A stretch of 64,000 nt of DNA. Origin: Desulfobulbaceae bacterium UBA5611. Lineage in GTDB: Bacteria; Desulfobacterota; Desulfobulbia; Desulfobulbales; Desulfocapsaceae. The translations under genes and the position numbers were made by a program. Location of the stretch: the NCBI GenBank assembly GCA_002424635.1, contig DIKT01000029.1, forward strand, positions 6,254-70,253, written 5' to 3'. Each line of letters starts with the position of its first letter. The first letter of the stretch is position 1. Shown here piece by piece: positions 7,310 to 52,512 of the stretch. The notes under the pieces are model-generated. The model saw nothing but the letters and a program-made list of their open reading frames with translations, searched no databases and had not been told where the DNA came from.

Positions 7310-8353
7310 TTATTGGTGCTGATCGAAGATTTCGGCAAAAACCGGGGCGATGTTCTTGAAGGTTTCGAGGATGGCCGGATCAAAATGGTGGGGCATGGTC
7401 CTGCCGTCACCCTCGGTAATAATCCGGCAGACCTTGTCGTGTGCAAAAGCAGGCTTGTAGGGTCTTGTACTGCGGAGCGCGTCATACTGATCGACGAGCA
7501 TGGTGATCCTGCCCTCCAGGGGTATGGCTGCTCCTTTGAGTCCCTGCGGATAGCCGCTCCCGTCCCACCGTTCATGATGCGACCAGGCAATAGAGGCAGC
7601 CATCCGGATCCTGGGGTATTGCGATCCGGAGAGGATATTCTCGCCCATAGTAGGATGCGTCTTCATGATGGTAAATTCTTCATTGCTCAGAGGGCCCGGT
7701 TTTAACAGGATAGTGTCCGAAATGCCGATCTTGCCGATGTCATGCAGTGGGCTGGCAAAGGTTATCATTTCGACAAAGTCCATCGGCAGACACATCGCCT
7801 CCGCCATTTTATTGGCATAAAAGCCAATCCTGGCAATATGAGCCCCGGTGTCCGTATCACGAAATTCGGCGGCCGCTGTTAATCTCCGCATCATTTCGTT
7901 GCTCATCTCCCTGAGATCCTGCGTTCTCTCCCGCACCTCCTGTTCCAGTATCTGATTATGCTTGAGCACAAAGTCTTCGTATTTCTTGATCTTGAGAAGG
8001 TTCTTGACCCGGATGATTAATTCAGCCTGATCGATGGGTTTGGACAGAAAATCATTGGCCGAGACCGACAGCCCTTTTAATCTCGAGTCTCTATCGTTAA
8101 GCGCCGTCACTATAATGATTGGAATATTCTTGGTCTCCGGGGCCGCCTTTATAATTTCGCAGGCATCATAGCCATCCATGACCGGCATCATGATGTCAAG
8201 GATGATCAGGTCAGGTAGGCTCTCCCTGGCCTGCCGCACCGCACCTTCCCCGTTGACGGCCAGTTCCACTTCATAGCCCAACGGAATGAGCCATTGGGTG
8301 AGCAGCCTGAGATTGGCATCCTCATCATCAACCAGCAATATTTTTTCACTCAT
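7310..8353 (-). CDS. Response regulator with HD-GYP c-di-GMP phosphodiesterase domain (RpfG-like)
   Basis: REC domain ([18 protein letters not shown]), then HDIGKIGI and [15 protein letters not shown] overlap with the upstream kinase. Confidence 0.9.
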
Positions 8354-11300: not shown

Positions 11301-11436
11301 TAAAGAATTCATAGAAGGACCGGCTGGCGGTGACCACCCTGAGGTCTTGATCCAGAACGATCAGGGGTTCGCGCACGGTGTTGATGACGCTCTCGGCGAA
11401 TTCCATGGATCTGGTGACGATTTCTTCCTTGGCCAT
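8350..11436 (-). CDS. Hybrid sensor histidine kinase: 5 PAS + HisKA + HATPase_c + REC
   Basis: 1028 aa. H-box [13 protein letters not shown] boxes ([23 protein letters not shown]), C-terminal receiver ([14 protein letters not shown]). AGGAG RBS. Confidence 0.9.
10687..10929 (-). repeat. PAS-coding repeat, copy 2 (kinase aa 170-250)
   Basis: 81 codons, 80/81 aa identical to copy 1 (11113..11355). Looser similarity extends over about 120 codons, with a 142-codon period. Confidence 0.9.
11113..11355 (-). repeat. PAS-coding repeat, copy 1 (kinase aa 28-108)
   Basis: [81 protein letters not shown]. Confidence 0.9.
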
Positions 11437-20300: not shown

Positions 20301-23300
20301 TGGAGAATATACTCCGGTAACAGGCGCGGATAATGGCATCGAGTGTTAACAAGGCCTGGTGAGGCAACAAGGCAGCATCGGCGCAGGCTCTCAGCAGATC
20401 GTGTAACAGTTTCGCCGGGGAAAAATATTTGAGACTCTCGGATGTGGTCGCTATAGTCAAGGGCTGGGTTAAGGGCTGAAAGAACAGTTGCAGGCCCACC
20501 ACCAGCGAGGCTATGGCCCCTGCCCGGGAAGAGAGAAGCCAGGCGGCAAACAAAAGGGCCAGACTGGCGGCCGGCAAAAGACTGCGCCGCAGATTGTCCA
20601 AAATTTTCCAGCGGTTGAGTAGAGAGAGCGGGTTGACCTCAGAGGTGCCGGCTGGTTGGGGGACACGAGGTAACAGCCAGCCGGCAATCTGCCAGTCGCC
20701 GCGAATCCAGCGATGGGCCCGGCTATTATATTTTTGATATTCCAGGGGAAAATCATCGTAGAGTTCAATATCGCTTGCCAGCGCTACCCGGACATAGGAC
20801 CCTTCGAGAAGATCATGGCTCAGCACCCGCTCGGCAGGTAAGCGGCCGGTAAGCAAACGGCTGAAGGCACGGACATCATATATGCCTTTGCCATGATATG
20901 AACCTTCGCCGCTTAAATCCTGATAGACATCAGAGACCAACTGGGTATAGGGATCGACTCCGACCGCATCGCTGAACAGGCGGGAAAAGATCGAGCCGTT
21001 CGTGCTCGGCAGGGTCGGGCTCACCCGTGGCTGGACGATGGTATAGCCGGATATGATTTTACCGGCCTCATCAAAACATGGCTGATTCAGGGGGTGGGCC
21101 AGGGTCTCAACCATCCGGCGGGCGGAAGCGTGTGGTAAGTGGGTATCACTATCGAGCGTGATTAAAAAACGGATATCAGCCAACCGATCCTGATCGCCGA
21201 CATAGACCAGGGAAGGAGCGGTTTCCGGACGGGTGCCGTCGATTAAACGGTTCAATTCCTCCAGCTTGCCCCGTTTGCGTTCCCAACCGATGAACTTTTG
21301 TTCGGAGTCACTCCAGCTGCGTTCCCGATGAAAGAGAAAAAAACGCTCGCCCTCATGCTGATGATTTAATTCTTCAATACAGGTAACGGCCGTCTGCAGC
21401 AGCCAGCTGTCTTCTTCCCGAACAGAGGTGTCGGAATCTGTATAGTCACTGAACAGGCTGAAGAAAAGATTGTCATCCCTGTTGGCCAGGTAGCGGATCT
21501 CCAGCTTCTCAGCCTCCGCCCGAATCGTTTCAGTATTCTCCAGCAGCATCGGCACTACCACCAGGGTGCGGAAGGCATCAGGAATACCTGTATCCTCAAA
21601 ATCCATCTTCGGCAGAGGGATGGGCGGCAGCAGTCGGGTGATCAGATAATTGACCAGCTGAATTGCTAATTGACTGACCGGAATCAGCAGGAAAAAAACC
21701 AGTACAACGAAGACGGCCGGCAGCGATCCGGTCTGGCCTGCAAGCGGTCTCATGCCAAAAATGACCAGGAAAATAAAAAAAGCGGTAAAACCGGCGATGC
21801 CAAGAGTGTAAATGGCGGTATGATTGCGATAGATCCAGGCCAAGGTCCGATGGCGCCTCGACTCCCGGCAGGCGAACTGGCGGGCGAGCTCCGCCCGCCC
21901 GCTGCCAATCAGCCACGTGCCGACATGTCTTAGCTTGTCATCATTTATTGCTTCCTGCTGGGTCGTGGTTGCCAGTTTAACGACGCGTTCGGCCAGATAT
22001 TCCTCAGTCACGTCTGCAAGGCGGGCCAGTTCTTCAATTGCCCGGCGACAACGATCACGGGTTATGAAATCCATTTGCGGATAGATCCCGGCTGGATCAT
22101 GGCGCAGTACCTGCTCCACTCGGCTAAGCTGCTCGAAGATGTCCCGCCAATCCAGCATGGCCAGCTGACGCAGACTGGTGAAGGCATTGCCGCTGGCTAA
22201 CTGTTCTCTGGTCTGCCGGTTCATTTCGTAGCGATGAAGGTCGGGCAACAGTACTTTCAAAGTCCGTTCAAGCCAGTTTTTGATCGGCGCCAAGGCCGCG
22301 GCTTCATCGTAGAGTAAACCTACCAGCTGTGCCCCGAAATAAGGGGTAGGGTGTGGCTCTGCTTTGGCAAGTTCCGACAGGATCGTGAAGAGCTGGTTGG
22401 AATCGCGGCGATTGGCCGCAATTAAGCGATTAGCCCAGAAATCAGCCAACTGATGTTCTCTTAGATCAGCCAACGCGGTAACGGCCAGGCTCTGAATGCT
22501 TTCAATAAGGGCAAAGCGCAGCATCTGGGGAATAGCCCAGAGCTCGCCGATCGTCAGCGGGCGCACTGACTGGTAGGCCTCGATATAGGCCAGGATATTA
22601 TCCCGGTTCAGACACATTTCGGTATGCGACACCAGATCCTTGGCCAGACCGTAGATACAGGGCATCCCCCGATAGGGCTCAGAAGCCAGGATGGGCAGCT
22701 GCTGGTAATAGCGGCGGGGCAGATTCGACAGAACCGCGCGGGCGTTGCCTTCCAGGATATACTCATTATCGAGAATCCAATCGGCAGCCGGTGTCGATTT
22801 CTGTTCCAGGCGGCTGGCTGCCGCCAGCTGGGCACAGATGTGACGAACCCAATCCCGGGATTTTTTAAAACGCTTGAGCAGTTCGGTATTGCGTTGCGGC
22901 CGTAGCTTCTCTACCTTCTGCTCGCGGGCATGACGCTGAGCATGTTCCAGCACCTGGGCCGGTAACAGTTTTACCTCAGGTCGCCGCGCCTCGGCTCGTC
23001 GTTCCTGTCTGGGATGCATGACAAACAGGACCGGTGATATATCGCCGCTTTCCCGCAGCAGAGCCAGCGGACGGGCTAAAGATTCACAGGGTGCCTGGAG
23101 AATAAGAAGGGATTCCCCGCTCATGAGCGAGCGGCTGTAATTATTGATTACTGCAGGTCCAACATGGTATCGGAAATGTCGAAACCAGAACAATGCGGCC
23201 AGAACACTGCTGCTGATACAGCCAATAATTAATATTGGCAGTAGTAGAGCCTGTTGCCACCCCGGCATCACATGCCGCCATTGCAGGAACAAAATGATAC

Positions 23301-23496
23301 TGATAGCCAGCAGAATGGCAAGTAGTGTTACCCAGAGAGCTCGCCGCCAGAGCCAGGGACCCGGACTATGAATGTCGCCGTTGTCATCCTTGTAAACCAG
23401 GACCGTGCGGCTGAAGCCCTGGCGGGCTAAGCCCCGGAGAGCTTTTCGCGCTTCATCTTGTGTTGCAAAGTAAGCAATAAGAACGCCAATATCCAT
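14314..23496 (-). CDS. Giant (3060 aa) cyclic beta-1,2-glucan synthase-like protein (Cgs/NdvB type: membrane GT84-like + central glucoamylase-like region + GH94 phosphorylase-like C-terminus)
   Basis: Single 9.2-kb ORF with multiple TM clusters. GT motifs ITLDSDTHLP and RWIRGDWQ. Central SPTNIGLW/VDSGNLLGALW. C-terminal GTGDWNDGLN and GGQYTHAG, as in GH94 domains. Confidence 0.75.
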   Translation of the reverse strand: MDIGVLIAYFATQDEARKALRGLARQGFSRTVLVYKDDNGDIHSPGPWLWRRALWVTLLAILLAISIILFLQWRHVMPGWQQALLLPILIIGCISSSVLAALFWFRHFRYHVGPAVINNYSRSLMSGESLLILQAPCESLARPLALLRESGDISPVLFVMHPRQERRAEARRPEVKLLPAQVLEHAQRHAREQKVEKLRPQRNTELLKRFKKSRDWVRHICAQLAAASRLEQKSTPAADWILDNEYILEGNARAVLSNLPRRYYQQLPILASEPYRGMPCIYGLAKDLVSHTEMCLNRDNILAYIEAYQSVRPLTIGELWAIPQMLRFALIESIQSLAVTALADLREHQLADFWANRLIAANRRDSNQLFTILSELAKAEPHPTPYFGAQLVGLLYDEAAALAPIKNWLERTLKVLLPDLHRYEMNRQTREQLASGNAFTSLRQLAMLDWRDIFEQLSRVEQVLRHDPAGIYPQMDFITRDRCRRAIEELARLADVTEEYLAERVVKLATTTQQEAINDDKLRHVGTWLIGSGRAELARQFACRESRRHRTLAWIYRNHTAIYTLGIAGFTAFFIFLVIFGMRPLAGQTGSLPAVFVVLVFFLLIPVSQLAIQLVNYLITRLLPPIPLPKMDFEDTGIPDAFRTLVVVPMLLENTETIRAEAEKLEIRYLANRDDNLFFSLFSDYTDSDTSVREEDSWLLQTAVTCIEELNHQHEGERFFLFHRERSWSDSEQKFIGWERKRGKLEELNRLIDGTRPETAPSLVYVGDQDRLADIRFLITLDSDTHLPHASARRMVETLAHPLNQPCFDEAGKIISGYTIVQPRVSPTLPSTNGSIFSRLFSDAVGVDPYTQLVSDVYQDLSGEGSYHGKGIYDVRAFSRLLTGRLPAERVLSHDLLEGSYVRVALASDIELYDDFPLEYQKYNSRAHRWIRGDWQIAGWLLPRVPQPAGTSEVNPLSLLNRWKILDNLRRSLLPAASLALLFAAWLLSSRAGAIASLVVGLQLFFQPLTQPLTIATTSESLKYFSPAKLLHDLLRACADAALLPHQALLTLDAIIRACYRSIFSKHLLLEWTAQTSHWWNVSRRQPLFVASMAIGSIFSLMVGWSIRQIRPDNLPQAAPWLILWLLSPLLVWILNLQPVRQQQTQALPEIDRRFLRQIARRTWRYFSTFVSADTLWLPPDNYQVAHQDRLAMRTSPTNIGLWMTSTLGAHDAGYLTIDQVIALLTSTMDTINRLERYKGHLLNWYDIQTLVPLEPRYVSAVDSGNLLGALWTLEKGLDELMHGPLLDGKAFAGLADTGEILKKHVALEGITILDRRSLDQLLTEWNAAPTTISDLLHLQRRTEVNVKSVIAAAGVIPWAAELKQQAAAWAHNRDSYLSWIEILAEKTEEELAILGPVAQLAIKKDLSCPPSLHDLARNQINSILILTAIREENSLVAPVISAWIDRVRAAFVNAQWLAGETLGQAERLIDRIRELSAALDMRFLYDAKRKLFAIGFNVSTDLLDDSSYDLLASEARFGSFIAIARGDVPIEHWFSMNRPYGALGNRRVLLSWAGTMFEYLMPLLFQRSYDNSLLDKAAREAVTAQIAYGRKRHVPWGISESAFANMDLNKTYQYKAFGVPALGLKRGLEEQLVIAPYATLLALNVAPQETMKNLKLLAGLGMLGDYGYFEAMDFSRQTQRQGKHGVIIKAYMAHHHGMAFLALINFLHDNPFPRRFHSDTRVRAFELLLQERIPILPTLHISSTRQSEPVLHTGELITPTGSTFTTPHTATPKTLLLSNGRYDLMVTNSGGGYSQWTGQELTRWRSDPTCDAMGSFCYLYEAAQNHLWSTTYHPVGGKVTQYAVDFTRDRAVFRRDDNGVHTETEVIVSPEDDVEVRRITLINHSAQVRRLALTTYVELSMAPHNADRQHPAFNKLFIQTEALTEQQALLAFRRPRSDNEPPLFVGHRLILQHTNGDNCPPEEDWQFETDRRRFIGRGRTMANPMGAMQDLGNNQGFVLEPCLSLRHNITLEPGQRLQLSLLLAAGSSREQVMLLMAKYCEPQAVTRAMDFAWGSAQQELQMLHIQPDEARRFQKLASHLLFPNSNFRAPGHRLAENRKGQAGLWPYGISGDLPITLVTIGKTWDISLARQMLQAHTYWRMHGLPTDLVILNEEAGGYERPLMERLERLIQANAVFNRNDQPGGVFLRNAAVIPEEDLKLLKFAASIVLVAARGTLPRQLGIPVEVHALREKVALKRVAGEPSAPLPFMELHYFNSLGGFTPDGREYAIYLGPETNTPAPWVNVIANPSFGTMVSETGTGFTWYGNSQRNRLTGWSNDPVLDPASEALYLRDEESGLFWSPTAAPIREDTAYRARHGAGYSVFEHNSNGIEQELTVFVPVDDDGGQPIKLQQLRLINASSRRRRLSLTYYVELILGENRETSQMHVITSWDDETRTLLAQNLYHSEYPERVAFVALTPSADSYGGDRTAFIGRNRSLANPAAMGLTRLSERTGAGLDPCAALRIYVDLAPGERREIICMLGQAESVDQARQLVLRFQADLAFDETLAQTKSWWDSLLGTVEVHTPDLAADLLINRWLQYQSLSCRLWARSAFYQSGGAFGFRDQLQDVLAFLYSRPQLARDQILLAASRQFQEGDVQHWWHEPTGAGIRSRFSDDLLWLPYVVGHYVRTTGDLQILQTELPFLKAPLLTDEQHEVFSIPEVTLERATLFEHCRRAVSRGLTIGPHGLPLIGTGDWNDGLNLVGAEGKGESVWLGWFLCELLQGMVEMSRLLQQPEMSLSYQEERSALIERIEKAGWDGEWYLRGTFDDGSPLGSAGNTEARIDSLPQSWAWLCGAADPQRAEQGLESAWQHLVCQDERLVLLFTPPFDKSEPSPGYIRSYPPGVRENGGQYTHAGLWMAMAMARKGDGERAVQLLRILNPIENARDATAVWHYGVEPYVVAADVYRLPGRIGQGGWTWYTGSAAWMYRVWVEEVLGLHIDHDRMQIKPVIPAAWEGFSLRYRHEGTLYQIEVENPDHCVCGVAWVEMDGQRLADGFIPLEKGLITHNIIVRMGDRQDVA

Positions 23497-42320: not shown

Positions 42321-42779
42321 TTATCTCAGATTTTTTCGGATTTTTTGTTTTTCCTGCTCAAACTTGGTCATGATAGTGTGGAGCTCGTCCCGGTCGAAAG
42401 CTTTTTTAGCACTTTTGAATATGTTGCTCTCTTCGTCTTTGATATGGTGATCAACCAGCTCTTTAAACACCCTCATCTTGGCGGCCCATTTATCATCGCC
42501 CTTCGGCATTTTGTCCAGTTCCTTTAAAACCAACTCACTCACATGATGTTCCTCCATGCCTTCCAGCGCATCTTCACGAGCCTCCTCCTTTTCCATTAAA
42601 GGTGTATAAAAAACGCCTTCCTCGGCTTTCATATGAGGTACCAGTTCTTCTTTCAGCTGTTGAAATAATTGTTCCCGCTTCTTCATTGTGGCGCCATTTT
42701 CACTGGTTTCATCAAGCTGTTCCAGGATGTCCTTTACTTCCATATGATCCTGCTTGAGCAATTTAAAGAATTCATTCAT
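42321..42779 (-). CDS. Hemerythrin-like (HHE cation-binding) domain protein
   Basis: H/E-rich four-helix pattern (DHMEVK, VPHMKAEE, EEHHVSE, DHHIKDEE). AGGAG RBS. Confidence 0.75.
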   Translation of the reverse strand: MNEFFKLLKQDHMEVKDILEQLDETSENGATMKKREQLFQQLKEELVPHMKAEEGVFYTPLMEKEEAREDALEGMEEHHVSELVLKELDKMPKGDDKWAAKMRVFKELVDHHIKDEESNIFKSAKKAFDRDELHTIMTKFEQEKQKIRKNLR

Positions 42780-42803
42780 GTTTTTTTTCTCCTTGTCTTC
42801 GCT

Positions 42804-42908
42804 TTAAGTGCATCCACGCAATAGGTAAAATAATATTAAGATGGGAATTGGCACTCCCAATGCCCACAGCAAAATCCAGCCTATCTTTCCATTTTGATTG
42901 TTAAGCAT
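42804..42908 (-). CDS. Possible 34-aa single-TM micro-protein
   Basis: MLNNQNGKIGWILLWALGVPIPILILFYLLRGCT. It fills the gap between two operon genes, but the RBS is weak. Confidence 0.3.
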   Translation of the reverse strand: MLNNQNGKIGWILLWALGVPIPILILFYLLRGCT

Positions 42909-42984
42909 AGAGAGCCTCGATTCGGTCAATTTAATTTTAGGATATCACTATTCTTTACAATAGCTTTACCGGCTCATAGATGGC

Positions 42985-43320
42985 TTAACGGAAAAACTCT
43001 GATGCAATATCGGAAAGGGCATTGACTACTGGTCGGGCGATACGGTTGGTCCGCGGGCGATGGTTAGTAGTATTGGCCAGGAGAAGACCTATGCCAACTC
43101 CTATGCCTAAGGCAACAAGAATAGTCGTGCCGGGATTTTCCTGGTTATAAACTTTGGCCTTTTCGTAGGTTTCATTCAACTTTCTGGTTGTTTTATTATA
43201 CATTTCACTTGCCGTTTTCTCAGCCTCTTCATAGGCCTCGGCGCCTTCTTCAATGATATTGGCAGTTGGGCTACCGGTCGCGCCCTGCTGTCTGGGGGCC
43301 TCGAATCTATTTGTCTCCAT
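42985..43320 (-). CDS. DUF883/ElaB/YqjD-like tail-anchored stress protein
   Basis: Start METNRF behind an AGGAGG RBS. Charged helical N-terminus, then ENPGTTILVALGIGVGIGLLLA TM. Confidence 0.6.
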   Translation of the reverse strand: METNRFEAPRQQGATGSPTANIIEEGAEAYEEAEKTASEMYNKTTRKLNETYEKAKVYNQENPGTTILVALGIGVGIGLLLANTTNHRPRTNRIARPVVNALSDIASEFFR

Positions 43321-43390
43321 GATATATCCTCCTGAATAAAGATGAGTTTTGATACTTCTGGAAATCTTAAAGGATCTTAAGGCTAAATTA

Positions 43391-43795
43391 TTATATGTTA
43401 TGGCCGCGCCCACTACCGGCAGTTTTGGCAGGTAAGGTTGCATATTTGATCCAATCGGTGGCCGCCTTTGTCACTATGGCCATCAGTGTTACTCTGAACA
43501 AGCCGGGCTTAGCGGCAGCGGCATTCAGGCCATTGAGTGAGTCGTGAACTTCCTCGGTTAAGGAGTCCAGGAAGCGTTCCAAAGGCGGGCGGCGTGTCTT
43601 TATTCTCTTGGCGGCAAGATAGCCAAGACCACCAGCAACGCCAAGCGCCCAATAGGGCGAATCCCTTACATAGACCCGCCAATCAAGTTTCTCTTTGAGG
43701 CGCTCTCCGATTTGTTCGGCTGTCTGCGAAAGTTGCTGTTCCTCTCGAGCTATATCCTGCATGATATCTTCGGTAGTACGTTCTTTGTCAGCCAT
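43391..43795 (-). CDS. Membrane protein with DUF3618-like charged N-terminal helix
   Basis: MADKERTTEDIMQDIAREEQQLSQTAEQIGERLKEKLD, then YWALGVAGGLGYLAA TM. AGGAGG RBS. Confidence 0.5.
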   Translation of the reverse strand: MADKERTTEDIMQDIAREEQQLSQTAEQIGERLKEKLDWRVYVRDSPYWALGVAGGLGYLAAKRIKTRRPPLERFLDSLTEEVHDSLNGLNAAAAKPGLFRVTLMAIVTKAATDWIKYATLPAKTAGSGRGHNI

Positions 43796-43832
43796 TCAGG
43801 ATCCTCCTTTCCTTAATATCTTTGATTAAAAA

Positions 43833-44174
43833 TCATTTTTGTAATTGCTTGGAGCCAATGAGAGCTAGAATGATCCCGACGACAGCAAAAACTACGCCAA
43901 TGATCAAGGCAGCAAGGGCGGGAGAGGTATATGAGGTAAGTCCGATGATCAAGGCCGCGCCAAAAGACAACAAGGCAGCAAAACCGATAGCTGCTCCTGT
44001 CGCGATCAATATGGCTGCCTGTTGAATAGTGCTCAACTTGTCGCGAAACCGTTGTATGACGAGCTCAATCTCATCGTGAATCACGGCGGCTGAGCCCTTA
44101 GCAAGCTGCCCCAGCAATTCAGGCAAGGATCCCGGTTCGGTAACGCCGGTATTATTTTCCACTTTATTATTCAT
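43833..44174 (-). CDS. YqjE/holin-X-like (DUF1469) two-TM protein
   Basis: Start MNNKVE behind a GGAGG RBS. Amphipathic N-terminus plus two long Gly/Ala-rich TM helices, ending in SKQLQK. Confidence 0.6.
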   Translation of the reverse strand: MNNKVENNTGVTEPGSLPELLGQLAKGSAAVIHDEIELVIQRFRDKLSTIQQAAILIATGAAIGFAALLSFGAALIIGLTSYTSPALAALIIGVVFAVVGIILALIGSKQLQK

Positions 44175-44188
44175 CGGGGGAGGCCTCC

Positions 44189-44458
44189 TTACCGGTGCCG
44201 GCACATCGCTCCGATAACCAGGCCGACGGCGCCTGCTATCAAAAGGCTGCGTCCCGGACTCTCTCTGACGTATTCCCGAACTCTGGCATCGGCCTCTTGA
44301 TAATCAAATTGGCGGATATATTCGGCTGATTGGTCCAGCCATTCGGATGCTTTGATGCCATATTGCGCCATCTTCTCGTTTGGAACGTCCGGGTCGATCG
44401 CTTTTTCGCACAAAACCTCAGCCGCTTGATGGAGCTTGTCGGCAATGATATTTTTCAT
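44189..44458 (-). CDS. DUF883/ElaB/YqjD-like tail-anchored protein
   Basis: C-terminal RESPGRSLLIAGAVGLVIGAMCRHR. The start is uncertain, because the ORF is open to 44602. Confidence 0.55.
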   Translation of the reverse strand: MKNIIADKLHQAAEVLCEKAIDPDVPNEKMAQYGIKASEWLDQSAEYIRQFDYQEADARVREYVRESPGRSLLIAGAVGLVIGAMCRHR

Positions 44459-44648
44459 GTTCCCCAGGCCGCAGCAGCATGATCTATCCGACCCTGGGAT
44501 CCCTGCCGTGGTCTCTCCGGTTGGGTCTATATCACAATTAGTTATTCCCATAGTTCGCCTCATAAAGGAGTCATGGTTGAGAACAGCCTGAACATTTTGC
44601 AATGATGAAAATATGATGACTATCTGTTCATGACCCGTTTGCTATAAC

Positions 44649-45317
44649 TTATAGCTTATCACGTAGAGGAGCTCTGGTACTGGAAGTAGTAGTGGCGGTG
44701 GTCCTTGGCTTGGACTCGCCTGCTGTTGGATAATCAGGATTATAATCACGGCGTGGAGGGACATCAGAGCCGGGTTTATCGCTGATATCATAGTCGGCAC
44801 TGGCTTCTGCTTTATAGGCCACATCTTCCGCCCCGGTCCGTTCTAAAATGTCTTTAGCCTTATTCTTCCAGTCCCGATTGTCGGCATGGACAGAGAGTAA
44901 AATTCCGCCTTCTTTGATACGCCCTTCATAGCGGTTGGCCTCATACTCGGGAATACCCATACCGATCAGTGCTCCGGCTATACCTCCGACTAAGCCACCG
45001 GCGCCGACCCCGGCTAAAGCAGCCACGATGGGTCCAGCTGCAACAAAAGGACCAATACCCGGGATGGTTATTAAGCCAATGCCGGCCAGCCAGCCTAAAG
45101 CTCCACCAATGACGGCCCCGCTGCTGGCCCCTGTCGCTGTTCCTTCCGGGGCCTTGGTTTCTTTCTCGATAGCGAAATCTTTGGTGCCGCCGCTTTCAGG
45201 AAACAAGACCGAGATGTCGGCACTGCGGAAGCCGGCTTCTTTTAATTCATCGACTGCTTTTTCAACGATCAGGCGGCTCGGATAGATGCCGTAAACTGCG
45301 ATGTTTTTAGATGCCAT
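44649..45317 (-). CDS. YflT (GSP17M)-like general stress protein with central glycine-zipper membrane region
   Basis: NIAVYGIYPSRLIVEKAVDELKEAGFRSADISVLF, then a ~70-aa G/A-rich hydrophobic segment, then IPEYEANRYEGRIKEGGILLSVH. GGAG RBS before ATG 45317. Confidence 0.6.
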   Translation of the reverse strand: MASKNIAVYGIYPSRLIVEKAVDELKEAGFRSADISVLFPESGGTKDFAIEKETKAPEGTATGASSGAVIGGALGWLAGIGLITIPGIGPFVAAGPIVAALAGVGAGGLVGGIAGALIGMGIPEYEANRYEGRIKEGGILLSVHADNRDWKNKAKDILERTGAEDVAYKAEASADYDISDKPGSDVPPRRDYNPDYPTAGESKPRTTATTTSSTRAPLRDKL

Positions 45318-45341
45318 CACCTTGTCTCCTTTCTTCAGAAT

Positions 45342-45731
45342 TTAGGGTTTGATAGTAATCTCGCTATTAATCCTATTGTTTCCTGCTGCCTGGGAGGCCT
45401 TCTGTTCAACCATTGTTTTTTCCTGCTCAGTTCTGACGTGCCCTTTTAATGTTACTACGCCACGCTCGGTAGTGATCGCCACATTCCTCTGAATCTCTTT
45501 GGGTAGTGTCTGGTCATCCTCGATGGCCTGCCAGATTTTTCCTGTGATCTCACGTTCTTCTTTGGTGCCGACTGTTTGCTTTTCAGCAAGCGGACCAGCT
45601 ACACCTACGGTTTTGTCCTGAGGGGGAGTTATTGTTTCCGGTTTATGGACCGCCAAACATGCTCCCGGGAAGTTGCCAAGCAAAAAGCCCGCTACCAACA
45701 AAGTCATAAAAAGTGTTTTATTTTTAGACAT
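45342..45731 (-). CDS. Secreted single-BON-domain protein (OsmY-like)
   Basis: Signal peptide. BON core VAITTERGVVTLKGHVRTEQEKTMVEQKA. AGGAG RBS. Confidence 0.8.
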   Translation of the reverse strand: MSKNKTLFMTLLVAGFLLGNFPGACLAVHKPETITPPQDKTVGVAGPLAEKQTVGTKEEREITGKIWQAIEDDQTLPKEIQRNVAITTERGVVTLKGHVRTEQEKTMVEQKASQAAGNNRINSEITIKP

Positions 45732-45864
45732 TTCATTTCTCCTTTTGTTATTACATGCTGAGTAATTCTGTTGCGTTAAGGCCCCTTGTCTTCATGTTTT
45801 ATGGACCACCTCCTTTTTTTATATCTATAAAAGTATGACTTGAGAATTTGTCATACTTTATATA

Positions 45865-45880
45865 AGCAATTTTAGTGCCA
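45865..45880 (-). promoter_or_regulatory. Sigma54 promoter of the BON/tail-anchored protein operon
   Basis: Minus strand reads TGGCACTAAAATTGCT, an exact TGGCAC-N5-TTGC. About 135 nt upstream of the ATG at 45731. Confidence 0.75.
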
Positions 45881-45929
45881 AGGAAATAAAATCAGTGATT
45901 ACAAAGGTATGAGATGACAAATAGTTGAA

Positions 45930-45985
45930 GCTGCTTGTGCGCTAAAACTTTTTCCCGAAATACGGAAACGAAAAAACGGAAATTT
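45930..45985. promoter_or_regulatory. Conserved upstream element A (candidate enhancer/UAS)
   Basis: GCTGCT..CGCTA..CTTTTTCCCGAAATACGGAAACGAAAAAACGGAAA lies 50-105 bp upstream of the -24 element. The core recurs at 50528-50580. Confidence 0.6.
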
Positions 45986-46032: not shown

Positions 46033-46395
46033 TTATTTATTGATAAATAAGATGGTGGTCCACCAGGCTATAAAGAGAAATTCAGCAAGCGCATCAAGCA
46101 GATAAATTGCTGCAATGATGCGCTTTTTAAAATAAATGATGTCGACTCCGGCCAGAACTACCGCACTACCGATGGCGAGCACTGCAGTTGATAACATTGG
46201 TTCCTGCCGCATTCCTGCAATTATCAAGGTAGTGCCGATGACAAAAAGAATAGCTCCCACAGTTTTCACAAGCCACAGGTCATGTTTCGGGCCGGTGACC
46301 TGCTGGAAGCTCTCGATGCTCACAATAGGCCAGATGCCGGTCAGGGCATAAAAGATGCCTTGGGTCAGAGCAGTAAGAAAAAAATTTTCTATCAA
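46033..46395 (-). CDS. Four-TM membrane protein, unknown function
   Basis: 120 aa, four hydrophobic helices, TTG start. Lies 19 nt downstream of the Cys-rich protein gene. Confidence 0.5.
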   Translation of the reverse strand: MIENFFLTALTQGIFYALTGIWPIVSIESFQQVTGPKHDLWLVKTVGAILFVIGTTLIIAGMRQEPMLSTAVLAIGSAVVLAGVDIIYFKKRIIAAIYLLDALAEFLFIAWWTTILFINK

Positions 46396-46414
46396 AGCCT
46401 ATACCCTATTCAAC

Positions 46415-46741
46415 TTAGGCCATTTTACGGCATTCATCTGCACATCTATAGCAGGCTTGAGCGCATTGCTGACAATGCTCCATCGTATGTTTGTTGCATT
46501 CATCACCGCATTCCTGGCAAACCTGAGCGCATAAGTCGCAGATTTTGGCAATATATTTGGAGCCACGGGCCATGAAACGGGCTGCCAGGTTGCAAATATC
46601 GGCGCAATCTTGATCGAGTTCGATGCAACGAACCATTATTTTAATATCATCTTCCAGCAAGCAGGCAGACAGGCAATGTTCGCAGGCTGTGACGCACTCA
46701 TTGCAGGCCTTGATACAGGTTTCATATTGTGTATGGGACAT
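46415..46741 (-). CDS. Cys-rich four-helix-bundle metal (copper)-binding protein (DUF326 family)
   Basis: 19 Cys in 108 aa, arranged as repeated CxxxCxxC/CxxCxxxC heptads (CIKACNECVTACEHCLSAC ... CQQCAQACYRCADEC). GGGAGG RBS. Confidence 0.8.
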   Translation of the reverse strand: MSHTQYETCIKACNECVTACEHCLSACLLEDDIKIMVRCIELDQDCADICNLAARFMARGSKYIAKICDLCAQVCQECGDECNKHTMEHCQQCAQACYRCADECRKMA

Positions 46742-46801
46742 AATTTCCTCCCGTTAATGATTAAAAGTCTTGACTGTCAAATGGCGTCCTTGGGTTACAA
46801 G

Positions 46802-46850
46802 CAAAAAAAGCGGGCGGAACGCTCTTGATAATAAATAAGAGCGTCCGCCA
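46802..46850 (-). terminator. Rho-independent terminator after the KGG-repeat gene
   Basis: GGCGGACGCTCTT / AAGAGCG(T)TCCGCC hairpin followed by T7 on the minus strand. Confidence 0.75.
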
Positions 46851-46918
46851 CCTTTAATAAGTACAGGCCGGCATTTTGAGCCTGACCTCGTGCCGGGTTT
46901 TATCTATGATGGCTGAGA

Positions 46919-47323
46919 TTATCTGTTTTTATGGCTTTGGCGGCCGGCCTTGGCATGCTGTTCCGGTGTGCCGCCGCGGGCTGATTTGCCTGAACTTTTA
47001 CTGCTGCTGCTGGAACTGCGGCTGCTCGAACCACGGCTGCTCTCGCCCCCTTTGGCGCCAATGTCTGCCATGTGAGAACGATCCCGGCTGGTCGACTCGC
47101 CGCCTTTACGGCCAATATCAGCCATATGCTCACGGTCCTGACTGACGGTTTCTCCACCTTTCTGACCGGCGCGGCGCGCCTCTTCAGATGTGAATTCATG
47201 GGCGGTGCCTTTTTCATGGGCTGCCTTGCCGCCCTGGCTTGCTATCTCTCGTTGTCGCTTTTCATCCATGGATGCAAAGCCGCGCTTACTCTGGCTTCCT
47301 ACATCTTTTCTATGACTAGGCAT
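46919..47323 (-). CDS. KGG-repeat general stress protein (GsiB/YciG-like)
   Basis: Repeated QGGKAAHEKG / QKGGETVSQDREHMADIGRKGGE / IGAKGGES. Ser-rich tail. Start MPSHRK behind an AGGAG RBS. Confidence 0.8.
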   Translation of the reverse strand: MPSHRKDVGSQSKRGFASMDEKRQREIASQGGKAAHEKGTAHEFTSEEARRAGQKGGETVSQDREHMADIGRKGGESTSRDRSHMADIGAKGGESSRGSSSRSSSSSSKSSGKSARGGTPEQHAKAGRQSHKNR

Positions 47324-47614
47324 GATCGTCTCCTTTAAGCTTAAATTTGCTGCAATCAAAGCAATGGTTAAGATTGCAGATAAGGGGGAGTCAACAACTT
47401 TGGGGCCATTGATGACCCCAGGCACTTCCAGAGATTAAAAAATACTTAATCATAGGAAATACATCATGGTTCTCATCATCGGCTATGCCTCCATCAAGTG
47501 ATGCCGCTGTCAACGGCAATGAGAGATAATAAGGATGAAGTTGCTGTTCATCCTGCCTGTGCATGGTTGCATGACTCGTTGTCATCTCATGATGGCCGGA
47601 TCGGGCAATTGTTT

Positions 47615-49705
47615 TTATGCTAAGACCCGCACGTACTGCTCCCGGTCCCATTGACGTGTCTTGGCCGCGGTAATAAAAGCATCATGGTCATTGATGTCGA
47701 CTATGCCGGCATCCAGCCCGACATTGGCTATATCCAAGAGGGCCTGGCCGCCATTGTCAACGGCAATGGCCTTGAGATGAGAGAAGGCATCCTGGACAAA
47801 CTGGATGGCGGCGCTGTCCATCGACAGCATCTCGGCCCCTTCGTCAGAGAGGATGATGGCCACGGCATCAAAAAGAACCGAAGGGGCACCGGCTAGCTGC
47901 TTGTCTGCCGGCAGCATTGAACCATCAGCCAGCATCGCCCCGCCTACTTTCGGGGCGATGATCTTTACGCCGGCGCCGGTATCAGTGATGGCCTTTTTTA
48001 TCTTATTGATGACTTTACCGTCGGACCCATCGGCAATCAGGATGCCGATATCGCGGCCCATAAGGGTGTCTTTCATTTTGCCGATGATCTGCAGGGCAGG
48101 GGAAGGCGGCAGATCCTGGACAGGGGCGGCCGCCACCGGCGCAGCGGGCATTTTTTCCAGGCCAAGACCCGTGGCCACCCGTTGGGCGAGGTCCTCTGCA
48201 ATATGTCGCAGATGACCAACCATGGCCTCCCGGACATGATTGGTAACTCGGGAAAGCTCAAAGACCAGGGCTGAAGCCAGATGGGCCTGCTCATATGCGG
48301 TCTGGCTGATATAGAACTGCCGGGCCTGGCTGTAATGGTCGGCGAAGCTCTCGGCCCGGATGCGGCCTTTGCCGCCAGTTTCAGTTATGGCGGCGCTATG
48401 AAAGCCATGAGGAGTTTCCCGCGGCGAGATTTTCGATAAGGAGTTGGGTTCATAAGCAACCTGGCCCGCCTGTGGAGCCATTTGCATATGACCATCACGC
48501 TGCTGATTGCCAAATGGACATTTTGGCGAGTTGATGGGGATCTGCTGGAAATTGGGCGAGCCCAGGCGCGACAGCTGGGTATCGAGATAGGAGAACAGGC
48601 GGCCCTGCAGCAAGGGGTCATTGGAAAAATCAAGGCCCGGCACGATATTGGCTGGACAGTAGGCGACCTGTTCCGTCTCGGCAAAGAAATTGCTGGGCCA
48701 TCTATCCAGGACCATGCGGCCGATAACCTTTAAAGGCACCAGCTCTTCCGGAATCAGCTTGGTCGGATCGAGATGATCGAACGGAAATTCGGCCGCCTCC
48801 TCTTCCGTAAAAAGCTGGACCGCGAATTCCCATTCCGGAAAATTACCGGAAGTGACGGCCTCAAACATATCACGCCGGTGATAGTCCTGATCGGCCCCGG
48901 CAATCTTGACGGTCTCGTCCCAAATGGTAGACTGCAAGCCGAGTTTGGGGCGCCAGTGAAATTTGACAAAGGTTGATTCACCATTGTCATTAAGCAGGCG
49001 GAAACTATGGACGCCAAAACCTTCAATCATGCGCAGCGACCGCGGAATAGTGCGATCGGACATGATCCACATGATCATATGCATGGATTCCGGCGAATGG
49101 TTGATAAAGTCCCAGAAGGTGTCGTGCGCTGTTGACGACTGCGGAAAGCCGCGGTCGGGCTCCATTTTGACGGCATGAATGATATCGGGAAATTTGATGG
49201 CATCCTGAATAAAGAAGACTGGGATATTATTGCCGACCAGATCCCAATTACCTTCCTTGGTATAAAACTTGACGGCAAAGCCGCGGACATCGCGCGGCGT
49301 ATCAATCGAGCCAGCGCCGCCGGCTACGGTTGACAACCGGGTAAAGACCGGGGTTTTTTCCCCAACCTCAGTGAGTATCCTGGCGGTGGTATACTGCGCC
49401 AATGAGTCGGTCAATTCAAAGAAGCCGTGGACGCCTGTGCCGCGGGCATGAACGACCCGTTCAGGAATGCGCTCGTGATCGAAATGGGTAATTTTTTCCC
49501 GCAGCATGAAATCTTCCAGCAGGGTCGGGCCTTTGGCATTAGCCCTTAGGGAGTTTTGATTATCGGCAATGGCAACCCCCTGATTGGTAGTCAGCGGTGG
49601 GTGCTCCCCCTCGACGCTTTGGTGTATTTCGCCGCCGGCAGCATGTTGTAAGGCTCCTTTACCCATCGCACTTTTCTCTTGTTTGCTTTTTTTAGAATTT
49701 GTCAT
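47615..49705 (-). CDS. katE: Large-subunit catalase (HPII type) with C-terminal DJ-1/PfpI-like domain
   Basis: 696 aa. [22 protein letters not shown]-type core, VRFSTV-like RLSTVAGG. C-terminal glutamine-amidotransferase-like domain. Confidence 0.9.
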
Positions 49706-49764
49706 TTTTGCCTCATAGTCAGAATGGTGAGTAAAAAATGTTCTTGTTAAGTTTTGTCTTGTAT

Positions 49765-50205
49765 TTAGGCCTTGACCGCCTCTAAGGCCGATTCGACCCG
49801 AGGTAGCATTTTGGTATTGTCAAAGTCGCCCCGTAAGACTTTCAAGGCATATCTCTCACGATCTATCTCCTGCTGGGTGCGAACCCCCAGCCTGCGGAAG
49901 ATGGGGACAGGCGGGCACCAGCCCTGTACTGCATGTTCGAATAAAAATGGTAATACTATGCCCGGTACCAGCAGCCATTTCCGATTATAGGTCAGACCGA
50001 GCACCAGTCCGGTGAAGGCCAGAGCGGAGGCATTAGTTTCAAGCATGCGCTCCATGTCCCATTCCCGGTCGAGCTCATTGAGACGGCAATTGATATCAGC
50101 AGTGCTTTTCTGGGCATATGCGCGGACCCGAGCATCAATGTTTTGATCAATCTGGCTGTTGATTTTTGCTGAAGTATGAGCCCGGACCCTGTCTGTTTTA
50201 GCCAT
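49765..50205 (-). CDS. DUF2892 (YgaP-like) membrane protein
   Basis: Start MAKTDR behind a GGGAGGA RBS. Two TM segments and the QGWCPP motif. Confidence 0.65.
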   Translation of the reverse strand: MAKTDRVRAHTSAKINSQIDQNIDARVRAYAQKSTADINCRLNELDREWDMERMLETNASALAFTGLVLGLTYNRKWLLVPGIVLPFLFEHAVQGWCPPVPIFRRLGVRTQQEIDRERYALKVLRGDFDNTKMLPRVESALEAVKA

Positions 50206-50450
50206 AATTTTTCCTCCCTGGGAGTTAAATTCAAGTCTTATAGATCTTAGGATCAGGATCCCTTTTTTGATTCTTTGGAATAAGAGAAAGATCGCGACGA
50301 GGGTTGGGTAGCCACGACTTTTCTCCTCATTCAAGTCATTGAGCCACTTATTTTTAAGATGAAAAGAAGATATACTGTTGAGGTAGTGAGTAAATTGGTT
50401 TTTTGCTCCAATGAGTCTGCACGCTTAAAATATAGCTTATTTTACTGAAC

Positions 50451-50466
50451 AGCAATATTTATGCCA
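50451..50466 (-). promoter_or_regulatory. Sigma54 promoter of the DUF2892-katE unit
   Basis: Minus strand reads TGGCATAAATATTGCT, with exact -24/-12 spacing. About 245 nt upstream of the ATG at 50205. Confidence 0.7.
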
Positions 50467-50527
50467 GTATTGCTTGGTCTGTTTTTAAGTAATTATTATT
50501 AGGACTTCATGTCAGTTTGACGATTTC

Positions 50528-50580
50528 GCTGCTATTTTTCGCTACGCTTTCCCGAAAAACGGACCGAAAAAACGGACTTA
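50528..50580. promoter_or_regulatory. Conserved upstream element B (candidate enhancer/UAS)
   Basis: GCTGCT..CGCTA..CTTTCCCGAAAAACGGACCGAAAAAACGGAC lies 62-114 bp upstream of the -24 element. Cores CCCGAAAnACGGA and CGAAAAAACGGA are identical to element A. Confidence 0.6.
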
Positions 50581-50692: not shown

Positions 50693-50721
50693 TTGACAAT
50701 CAGTCCGGAACGATGCAATAT
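50693..50721 (+). promoter_or_regulatory. Candidate sigma70 promoter for the GGDEF gene
   Basis: TTGACA, 17 nt, CAATAT. About 80 nt upstream of the ATG at 50800. Confidence 0.4.
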
Positions 50722-50799
50722 TTCTTGTAAAGATTTAAATATTCCAATGGCGTTAATGATCTGAAGAAATAAGTGAGATTATCTTCATTCAGAGGTCAT

Positions 50800-52512
50800 A
50801 TGCACATCAAACTATCTACATCCCGAAAAGAGGCCCTCCGGATAGCTCTACCTCCCCTGGTAGCTGTTGTTCTGTTTGTCTCCGTTGTTTTCGGCTTGCT
50901 TCTGCCGGGCTATCATAATGCTGTGCTGGAACGAAAAAAGGAGATGATCCGCGAATTAACCACTACCGCCTGGAATATTCTGCAGTATTATCATACCAGG
51001 ACCGGCCATGGTGAGCTGACCCGGTTGGAGGCTCAAACCATGGCGGCGGAGGAGATCGGCAGACTTCGTTATGGGCCTGATAATAAAGATTATTTTTGGA
51101 TAAATGACATGCGGCCGGTGCTGATCATGCATCCCTATCGGCCGGATTTGGAAGGTCAGGATGTGTCTGATTTTGCCGATCCCAGCGGCCAGCGGCTGTT
51201 TGTGTCCTTTGTTGATAAGGTCCAGCAGGAGGGCTCCGGTTTTGTCCCTTACCTCTGGCAGTGGCAGGATGATGCCAGTCAAATAGTGGCCAAATTATCC
51301 TATGTCAAAGGATTCCAACCCTGGGGCTGGATCGTCGGTACTGGTATCTATCTGAATGATGTAGAACAGGAAACGGCCTTGGTCACGACCAGACTGGCTA
51401 TGATCTCCCTGGCCATTCTGCTTTGTATTGCCGCCCTTTCAGCCCATAGCATACGACAGGGTATCCGGGCGGTGCGCCAGCGTCGGCAGGCCTTGGAACT
51501 GCTGAGTCAGCATCGCGATCAGCTGGCTGAGGATGTCAACGAACGGACCCGGGAATTGCAGGAAAGTAACGAGCTCCTGCGTTCAGAAGTAGAGGAACAT
51601 GCCAGTGCCGAAAAGCATATCACCGGCCAGCATGCCTTCCTGGAAAGCGTCTTAGAGTCGCTGCCGTTTCCTTTTTATGTAGTGAATGCCGATAATTATT
51701 TGATTGAGATGGCCAATTCTGCGGCCAAGAAAGAAGGTTGGGTTGGAGGTGCTTGTCATCTTCTGACCCATGGCAGCCCAGTGCCATGCGGTGGTGAGGG
51801 CCATTCTTGCCCCCTGGATGAGGTGAAAAGAACAGGCTTGCCGGTAACCTTAGAGCATCAGCATTATGATCATGAGCACGGAGCCTGTCGTTTTTATGAG
51901 GTACACGGCTTCCCTATCTTTGATAAAGAAGGCCGGGTGGTCAAAATGATCGAAACCAGTCAGGATATCACCCAGCGCAAGGAACTGGAGGCTCAGCTTA
52001 TAGAAATCTCCAATACCGATCAGTTGACCGGTCTCTATAATCGACGCGGCTTTTTTATTATGGGCGAAAAACAGATGCAGGTGGCTGAGCGTCTGGGCAG
52101 CCGGCTGACTCTGCTTTTTGCTGATGTTGATAATCTCAAGCCGATCAATGATACCCTTGGCCATGAAGGGGGTGATGCTATTTTAAAGGCAGCGGCCACC
52201 GTCCTGATAGATACTTTTCGCCAGGCTGATATTGTCGGGCGCTTAGGTGGTGATGAATTTGCTGTCCTGTTGATAGAAGGCAGCGAGGAGGCTAATGACT
52301 TTACAATGCAGCAGCGTCTGCAGGAAAATATCGACCATCGTAACCGGGCCTTCCCTGCTTTTCCTCTGGAGTTGAGCACCGGTACTGCTCTGTTCGATCC
52401 CGCCAACCCCTGCTCCCTTGAGGATCTCATCGCCGAGGCGGACCGACATATGTATGAGGACAAGCAGGCCAAGAAAGCCGTAATTGTTCTTAAGCCTGCA
52501 GAGACAGCATAG
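50800..52512 (+). CDS. Diguanylate cyclase: periplasmic sCache sensor + TM + coiled coil + Cys-motif PAS + GGDEF
   Basis: YFWINDMRPVLIMHPYRPDLEG Cache signature, RLGGDEFAVLL active site. The ATG at 50800 has an AGAGG RBS. The ORF is open to GTG 50773. Confidence 0.85.
   Translation: MHIKLSTSRKEALRIALPPLVAVVLFVSVVFGLLLPGYHNAVLERKKEMIRELTTTAWNILQYYHTRTGHGELTRLEAQTMAAEEIGRLRYGPDNKDYFWINDMRPVLIMHPYRPDLEGQDVSDFADPSGQRLFVSFVDKVQQEGSGFVPYLWQWQDDASQIVAKLSYVKGFQPWGWIVGTGIYLNDVEQETALVTTRLAMISLAILLCIAALSAHSIRQGIRAVRQRRQALELLSQHRDQLAEDVNERTRELQESNELLRSEVEEHASAEKHITGQHAFLESVLESLPFPFYVVNADNYLIEMANSAAKKEGWVGGACHLLTHGSPVPCGGEGHSCPLDEVKRTGLPVTLEHQHYDHEHGACRFYEVHGFPIFDKEGRVVKMIETSQDITQRKELEAQLIEISNTDQLTGLYNRRGFFIMGEKQMQVAERLGSRLTLLFADVDNLKPINDTLGHEGGDAILKAAATVLIDTFRQADIVGRLGGDEFAVLLIEGSEEANDFTMQQRLQENIDHRNRAFPAFPLELSTGTALFDPANPCSLEDLIAEADRHMYEDKQAKKAVIVLKPAETA

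Follow-up and report, generated by a model that had tools for sequence, protein, structure and literature searches.

A 30-nt sequence block that recurs upstream of two co-oriented stress operons probably serves as the upstream activating sequence (UAS) of a sigma-54 enhancer-binding protein that would co-activate both of them. Each copy of the block, here referred to as the type A element, is accompanied by a predicted sigma-54 type promoter on the minus strand of the window (i.e., the whole 64-kb stretch of DNA that was analysed), one preceding an operon that starts with a BON gene and the other an operon that encodes a large-subunit catalase. The position of the block, its repeats, the two related and co-oriented operons, its conservation, helical phasing, and the recurrence of such an arrangement elsewhere all fit a conventional sigma-54 enhancer and make it the simplest account. 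The architecture is ordinary, the site is apparently undescribed, and the target gene set is unusual. RpoD homologues place the source organism near Desulfocapsaceae (72% identity; 67% for Desulfocapsa sulfexigens), and since no sequence closer than ~80% was found, it is regarded as an uncultured Desulfobulbales-like member of Thermodesulfobacteriota.

The two promoters and the two type A elements are as follows, with predicted transcription starts taken 12 nt past the GC element:

P1: 45865..45880 (read 45880 to 45865), minus strand; predicted sigma-54 type promoter, TGGCACTAAAATTGCT, with GG at -24 and GC at -12.
Type A element, site 1: 45950..45984, minus strand; core TCCGTTTTTTCGTTTCCGTATTTCGGGAAA at 45980 to 45951, ~-97 to -126 from the predicted start.
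P2: 50451..50466 (read 50466 to 50451), minus strand; predicted sigma-54 type promoter, TGGCATAAATATTGCT.
Type A element, site 2: 50548..50576 (read 50576 to 50548), minus strand; TCCGTTTTTTCGGTCCGTTTTTCGGGAAA, ~-108 to -136 from the predicted start.

In both promoters, the GG and GC doublets of TGGCAC-N5-TTGCW are separated by exactly 10 nt, and the PWM scores are 19.4 bits (P1) and 19.7 bits (P2). An earlier note on this DNA had described P1 as TGGCAC-N5-TTGC with perfect spacing ~135 nt before the BON start codon; it is indeed a perfect match (16/16 consensus positions), and the exact distance to the start codon (45731) is 134 nt, with a predicted transcription start at ~45854, i.e., 123 nt 5' of that codon. 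P2 agrees with the consensus at 15 of the 16 positions, lies 246 nt 5' of its start codon, and has a predicted start at ~50440, leaving a 235-nt leader to the ATG at 50205; the same note's claim of a second sigma-54 promoter with the same upstream element at 50451-50580 thus also held. On both strands of the window, exact TGGCA-N6-TTGC has only these two matches. As shuffled sequence is expected to contain 1.31 such matches anywhere on either strand, the weight rests on position and pairing and not on the count, both promoters being intergenic, gene-oriented, and each paired with a type A block. The promoters are conserved among the related loci L011, L016, L017, L018, and L021; P1 reads TGGCA[C/T]TAAAATTGCTTA in a five-sequence alignment, and P2 is invariant in comparison with L016. 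Promoter scans, including the PWM scan, found no further sigma-54 promoters within operon 1 or operon 2. A further sigma-54-like match, at 23488, was discarded on account of its position within the start of a 3060-aa ORF.

At both sites the block takes the form TCCGTTTTTTCG[TT/G]TCCGT[A/T]TTTCGGGAAA, and the sequence TCCGTTTTTTCG-N1-2-TCCGTNTTTCGGGAAA has exactly two copies in the window (sites 1 and 2) and none in 100 shuffles. The core consists of two tandem TCCG-(T/A)5-6-CG units, which repeat every 14 nt at site 1 and every 13 nt at site 2, in agreement with the direct repeat of 13-14 bp period that had been noticed earlier; the second unit is also a dyad (TTTCC-N8-GGAAA at site 1, TCC-N8-GGA at site 2). 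The distance from block to promoter is 70 nt at site 1 and 81 nt at site 2, and as this 11-nt difference equals one helical turn, the block stays on the same helical face. An enhancer would be anticipated ~80-150 nt upstream of the promoter, where the element is found at both sites, and would offer at least two repeated or dyad sites for oligomer assembly, which are present here in an atypical direct-repeat form. It would also have a motif common to sigma-54 promoters and absent elsewhere, and the two window copies are both located at predicted sigma-54 promoters. To our knowledge, the type A motif is unrelated to known activator motifs. Site 2 is located in the divergent intergenic region common to P2 and a Cache-PAS-GGDEF gene (50773-52512, plus strand), whose own promoter, at 50693-50722, is sigma-70-like. 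The DNA between the block and P1 or P2 was also inspected by eye for IHF-like sites, and only partial matches, inconsistent between the sites, were seen.

Pairwise alignment of the two upstream regions revealed likeness only in the block and the promoter, with scattered bases outside the ~30-nt core, which indicates an element of ~30 nt and not 55 nt. The shared element reported in the earlier note is therefore real, but its conserved length of ~55 nt is not: the constrained length is 30-35 nt, and the TAGCG...AGCAGC extension is lost at site 2 in L016. The same restriction of likeness to block and promoter argues for selection and against recent duplication. The block is rich in CG-flanked T5-T6 tracts, which would make the DNA bent or stiffer, and the two copies might in principle represent a bent structural element without a sequence-specific protein, or a recently duplicated promoter cassette. 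Such an origin is highly improbable, as the surroundings have diverged to background while 27/29 block positions are identical between the sites, the block is invariant across relatives and occupies the position of an enhancer instead of the middle of the loop, where a bend would help looping, and the 13-14 nt period of the T-tracts is out of phase for cumulative bending.

Scans of the window and of public sequence collections showed how restricted the block is. A single-unit search allowing <=3 mismatches returned the two sites and two chance matches only, and no intergenic tandem pair of TCCG-N5-6-CG beyond the two sites was present in any of the loci compared. The pattern TCCG-W6-CG-N1-2-TCCG-W5-CGGGA was scanned against 185,579 species genomes, a set that does not include the source lineage, and gave two hits, both due to chance (coding-like DNA of an unrelated MAG and a Streptomyces simple repeat). 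A slightly looser pattern gave 10 loci in JGI metagenomes, namely eight chance matches or unrelated repeats and two related loci from one sample, L011 and L016, which hold the orthologues of sites 1 and 2, respectively, from a close relative, each with its sigma-54 promoter intact at the same distance. Apart from chance matches, the scans thus yielded the block just at the counterparts of P1 and P2 in a single close relative, and a dispersed repeat can be dismissed. Frequent occurrence of the core without a link to sigma-54 promoters, by which the earlier note would have recognised such a repeat, did not arise in the window, the species genomes, or the JGI metagenomes, where, chance matches aside, only promoter-linked copies were encountered; likewise, REP- or MITE-like elements would have many copies without a promoter link, whereas the block has two copies in the window, both promoter-linked.

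Seven BON homologues, all at least 77% identical, were retrieved, and their contigs together with L011 provided four more copies of site 1; so few and such similar homologues give poor footprint resolution. In the resulting five-sequence alignment of the site 1 region, 73% of the columns are invariant. No invariant stretch upstream of BON is longer than the block itself (AATTTCCGTTTTTTCGTTTCCGTATTTCGGGAAAA, 35 nt; permutation p=0.0007), i.e., the block is more strongly conserved than the surrounding non-coding DNA, as an enhancer would be, with the footprint power limited by the closeness of the relatives that carry it (~73% invariant intergenic DNA). At site 2, a 32-nt block and the promoter are invariant in comparison with L016, and the flanks contain 28-nt and 70-nt indels. 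Overall, close relatives show no change in the -24/-12 elements or the block, whereas substitutions and indels occur in the flanks. In L023, the next more distant relative (YflT-like protein 87% identical, no BON gene), the sigma-54 promoter TGGCATAAAGATTGCT precedes the operon and no type A block is recognisable in the upstream region; a tentative resemblance in L023 (CCGTTTTT/TAGCG) was judged unconvincing.

The genes downstream of P1 and P2, delineated for operon 1 from Pfam hits, gene calls, and synteny, are all on the minus strand:

Operon 1: 42321..45731, minus strand; downstream of P1.
45731-45342, minus strand; BON gene, first gene of operon 1.
45317-44649, minus strand; YflT/DUF3341-like gene, second in order.
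44551-44189, 43795-43391, and 43320-42985, minus strand; DUF883-like tail-anchored proteins.
~44174-43833, minus strand; holin-X-like membrane protein.
42908-42804, minus strand; hydrophobic membrane peptide of 34 aa, MLNNQNGKIGWILLWALGVPIPILILFYLLRGCT, between the last DUF883-like gene and the hemerythrin gene.
42779-42321, minus strand; hemerythrin.
Operon 2: 46033..50205, minus strand; downstream of P2.
50205-49765, minus strand; 146-aa protein of unknown family, first gene of operon 2.
49705-47615, minus strand; large-subunit catalase.
47323-46919, minus strand; KGG-repeat stress protein.
46741-46415, minus strand; Cys-rich four-helix-bundle protein.
46395-46033, minus strand; 120-aa membrane protein.

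The 34-codon ORF at 42804-42908 is absent from public gene sets and resembles the DUF5670-like small membrane stress peptides of L025 and L031. A terminator scan found no convincing terminator between operon 2 and site 1, so that read-through from operon 2 into operon 1 is possible. The window has no Rfam match, and neither leader has a significant fold (z-scores of -0.64 for operon 1 and -0.07 for operon 2). With no Rfam hit, non-significant folds, and a block located upstream of the predicted starts, a reading as an RNA family (leader or riboswitch) was discarded. The leader of operon 1 (45732-45856, minus strand) contains a hairpin GTATGAC-N10-GTCATAC at the predicted +1, the strongly conserved blocks AAAAAAGGAGGT and GCAACAGAATTACT, and an upstream ORF of 14 codons, which L017 has lost. 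The leader of operon 2 (50206-50440, minus strand, 235 nt) contains a conserved stretch ATAAGTGGCTCAATGACTTGA...AGTCGTGGCTACCCAA and a 70-nt indel in comparison with L016.

Operons 1 and 2 form the upstream end of a minus-strand island of mostly stress and repair genes, which extends from ~23.6 to 50.3 kb (23607-50334, roughly 27 kb). Its other members encode Ku, LigD, a short-chain dehydrogenase (SDR), a multicopper oxidase, YHS, an amine oxidase, an Fe/Mn superoxide dismutase, DJ-1/PfpI, BrkB, a hydrolase, rhodanese and sulfur-transport proteins, CsbD, a PRC-barrel protein, and DUF748. Much of this gene set recurs in L023 and L030. Directly 3' of the DUF748 gene at the end of the island lies the 3060-aa ORF (14314-23496, minus strand), which has GH94 supersandwich and catalytic domains as well as a glucoamylase-like domain and resembles cyclic beta-1,2-glucan synthase. 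Elsewhere in the window, a REC-HD-GYP gene (7310-8353, minus strand), an adjacent hybrid PAS histidine kinase gene (8350-11436), and an HDOD gene (1872-2768, plus strand) are found. A cyclic-di-GMP link to the stress island is possible.

The same contig carries at least five putative sigma-54 promoters in front of stress-type genes, with two types of upstream element. Besides P1 and P2, these are P3, within the island, and two promoters in L031, a locus of the same contig that reaches 9.2 kb past position 1 of the window (subtracting 9217 from an L031 coordinate gives the window coordinate):

P3: 26606..26621 (read 26621 to 26606), minus strand; predicted sigma-54 type promoter, CGGCACAAGGCTTGCA, upstream of csbD-like and PRC-barrel genes.
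26442-26242, minus strand; csbD-like gene, downstream of P3.
26133-25555, minus strand; PRC-barrel gene, downstream of P3.
Type B element of P3: 26720..26747, minus strand; CATATATGGCCA followed by the palindrome GGTTATATATAACC, ~100-125 nt upstream of P3.
L031 200-1726: REC-AAA+(GAFTGS)-HTH_8 activator of 508 aa, 7.5-9 kb beyond window position 1.

The 16-mer of P3 is found in identical form upstream of the csbD-like gene in L023. The type B element has no sequence relationship to type A; elements of type B also accompany two L031 promoters, and a similar one is found in L030. In L031 (1-6700), a large PAS sensor kinase and the REC-AAA+(GAFTGS)-HTH_8 activator are located beside two minus-strand stress-type operons, with sigma-54 promoters at 6471 and 4931 (minus strand) before BON/DUF5670 small-protein and lipoprotein/DUF1207 genes. 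One operon has the promoter CGGCACAAACTTTGCT with a split GGTTATAT-N15-ATATAACC element, the other has the promoter TGGCATAACATCTGCA with the element GGTTATATACC and an inverted single unit, GACCGTTTTTCCGGAAT, that matches 14/17 bases of the type A unit; both promoters carry GGTTATAT-type elements.

Signatures of AAA+ sigma-54 activators (GAFTGA-type loop, Walker A, ESELFGH) are absent from all six frames of the 64-kb window, and to that extent the earlier note was right to state that the window holds no such gene, but the statement has to be amended for the contig, given the REC-AAA+-HTH_8 gene 7.5-9 kb beyond position 1. No rpoN gene was seen in ~73 kb of contig sequence; the presence of the activator gene on the contig suggests that the organism has sigma-54 activation machinery. 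The flanking activator is a candidate regulator of type A, but being ~53 kb away and located beside type B promoters, it may not be the cognate one. As type B resembles the element beside the related L030 activator, type A may belong to a paralogue encoded elsewhere in the genome. None of the candidate activators scores above the NCBIfam cut-offs of a named activator family.

The block could instead be the operator of another regulator (e.g., a repressor, an anti-activator, or a stress co-regulator) that modulates both promoters, the activator acting from elsewhere or from solution. This would suit the direct repeat with a 13-14 nt period, which is unusual for activator sites as most characterised ones are dyads, the lack of an activator gene adjoining either site, and the S5 promoter on the same contig, where an inverted type A-like unit (14/17 bases) beside a type B element fits a second factor. 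It is nevertheless unlikely, since the block is the only upstream sequence shared besides the promoter and thus leaves no alternative candidate enhancer, a position of -97 to -136 is typical of enhancers and far for a repressor, and in other lineages each promoter set has a single shared element, likewise at this position.

As the YflT/DUF3341-like protein is widespread, more distant loci could be sampled. Sigma-54-like promoters were defined as GG-N10-GC with <=2 mismatches to the consensus, of which a 300-nt upstream region is expected to contain ~0.015. Stress genes are preceded by two of them each in L023 and L025, by one in L027, and by three in L030; none were found before the stress genes in L028 (Desulfonatronum) and L029 (Syntrophorhabdaceae). 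Given the lack of such a promoter in L028, the phylum has no single mode of control for this gene set. In L028 (7300-7360), a hemerythrin and YflT-like gene pair has an upstream GGAAC motif that might be an ECF-type promoter. The promoters of L025 share a lineage-specific element TTGAGG...TTGAGG and those of L030 another one, CCATATATGG...GTTATGTCA...ACGGAT, in each case ~100-130 nt upstream. In both L025 (7652-13200) and L030 (1-15000), a PAS-AAA+-HTH_8 activator gene adjoins CheB or CheR genes and is adjacent to csbD, YflT-like, and BON genes. These two activators belong to the same subfamily as the one on the contig and are 50% identical to each other and 50-53% identical to the activator of the contig, including an unusual coiled-coil linker; for L030, the 53% identity covers the coiled-coil linker, AAA+, and HTH regions.

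The recurrence in four other lineages of homologous stress genes with GG-N10-GC promoters of <=2 mismatches also bears on the promoters themselves. If P1 and P2 were not sigma-54 dependent in vivo, their TGGCA-N6-TTGC matches would have arisen by chance or be relics, with the block serving a sigma-70 family promoter as an activator or UP-like site. Weak sigma-70-like hexamers (9/12 matches) do overlap or adjoin P2, and one or two exact sigma-54 consensus matches per 64 kb are expected by chance, but the two matches are both correctly placed and oriented, paired with the block, and invariant in relatives, which together with the recurrence makes this explanation very unlikely. That the geometry is as expected for an enhancer bound by a bacterial enhancer-binding protein, as the earlier note had proposed, is supported by the position at ~-97 to -136, the phasing, the conservation, and the recurrence elsewhere.

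With the block as a sigma-54 enhancer, the activator would bind the two tandem TCCG-(T/A)5-6-CG units at ~-100 to -135 and then oligomerise, the DNA would loop to bring it to the closed complex of RNA polymerase and sigma-54 at the TGGCA-N6-TTGC promoter, and ATP hydrolysis by the activator would open this complex. As both operons have the same block, one signal would switch both on. Of this scheme, the sequences themselves and their uniqueness, conservation, position, and phasing are observed, whereas dependence on RpoN, binding by a protein, the activator concerned, and the signal that induces the operons are inferences; judging from gene content, the signal would presumably be oxidative, osmotic, desiccation, or stationary-phase stress. 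More tentatively, Desulfobulbales- and Desulfuromonadales-like lineages might run their general stress and dormancy genes by sigma-54 and dedicated coiled-coil-AAA+-HTH_8 activators with swapped sensors (REC, PAS, or CheB/CheR-linked) instead of by a sigma factor of the RpoS/SigB/EcfG type, with sub-regulons set by modular upstream elements, of which type A would be one. The gene set under such control may, equally tentatively, comprise catalase, BON/OsmY, CsbD, YflT, ElaB-like, KGG, and hemerythrin proteins, and perhaps Ku/LigD. If the block is confirmed as an enhancer, the 30-mer becomes a probe for the activator of catalase and envelope/desiccation protection genes in an uncultured Desulfobulbales-like anaerobe. 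If the wider model is true, sigma-54 with modular activators would do the job of RpoS, SigB, or EcfG, which bears on how strict anaerobes face oxygen, drying, and starvation. For annotation, widespread clusters of 'hypothetical stress proteins' carry recognisable regulatory signatures.

In a literature search by topic, and not by the 30-nt sequence, no account of this gene set being under sigma-54 control came to light. The enhancers of the Myxococcus xanthus activator Nla28 are reportedly tandem short repeats, with a motif differing from type A. Nla28 is a sigma-54 activator of starvation and stress genes in a deltaproteobacterium-type lineage (PMC9765219), and its regulon differs from the present one in organism group and targets. 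The sigma-54 regulome of Desulfovibrio vulgaris is closer in that it belongs to the same phylum and has activator-specific motifs upstream of sigma-54 promoters; it comprises many activators, each with its own motif, and one regulon, that of the response regulator DVU3305, is labelled a general stress response (Kazakov et al. 2015, PMC4641369; Rajeev et al. 2011, PMC3333781). The targets of the latter differ, being UspA-type and membrane proteins as well as its own operon with a Lon-type response regulator (PMC4641369; PMC3333781). A text search of PMC4641369 did not find catalase, BON, CsbD, or hemerythrin named among the sigma-54 targets, and catalase, BON, and CsbD targets are likewise unmentioned in Desulfovibrio and Geobacter sigma-54 regulon papers and in a 2025 cross-phylum survey.

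Among well-characterised enhancers, NtrC-glnAp2 is alike in having a GG/GC promoter with exact spacing, two adjacent upstream sites (~-110 and -140 there, ~100-135 nt upstream here), preserved helical phasing, and an activator that is encoded elsewhere and can serve several promoters. It differs in that the NtrC sites are 17-bp dyads (TGCACC-N5-GGTGCA) whereas the type A sites are direct TCCG-(T/A)5-6-CG units 13-14 nt apart, and in that the targets here are stress-protection genes and not nitrogen genes. The enterobacterial PspF-pspA system likewise has a stress-protection operon with a sigma-54 promoter and two upstream sites at ~-80 to -130 (UAS I and II). However, PspF is encoded divergently beside its target and lacks a sensor domain, no activator is adjacent here, and the gene content and site sequence are unrelated. 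The general stress regulons of RpoS, SigB, and EcfG contain large catalase (katE), BON/OsmY, ElaB-like DUF883, KGG (YciG/GsiB), CsbD, YflT, Ku/LigD, SOD, and DJ-1 proteins, a gene content very similar to that described here. Those regulons are switched by alternative sigma-70 family factors via partner-switching or proteolysis, whereas the operons studied here have predicted sigma-54 promoters, which need an ATP-driven activator.
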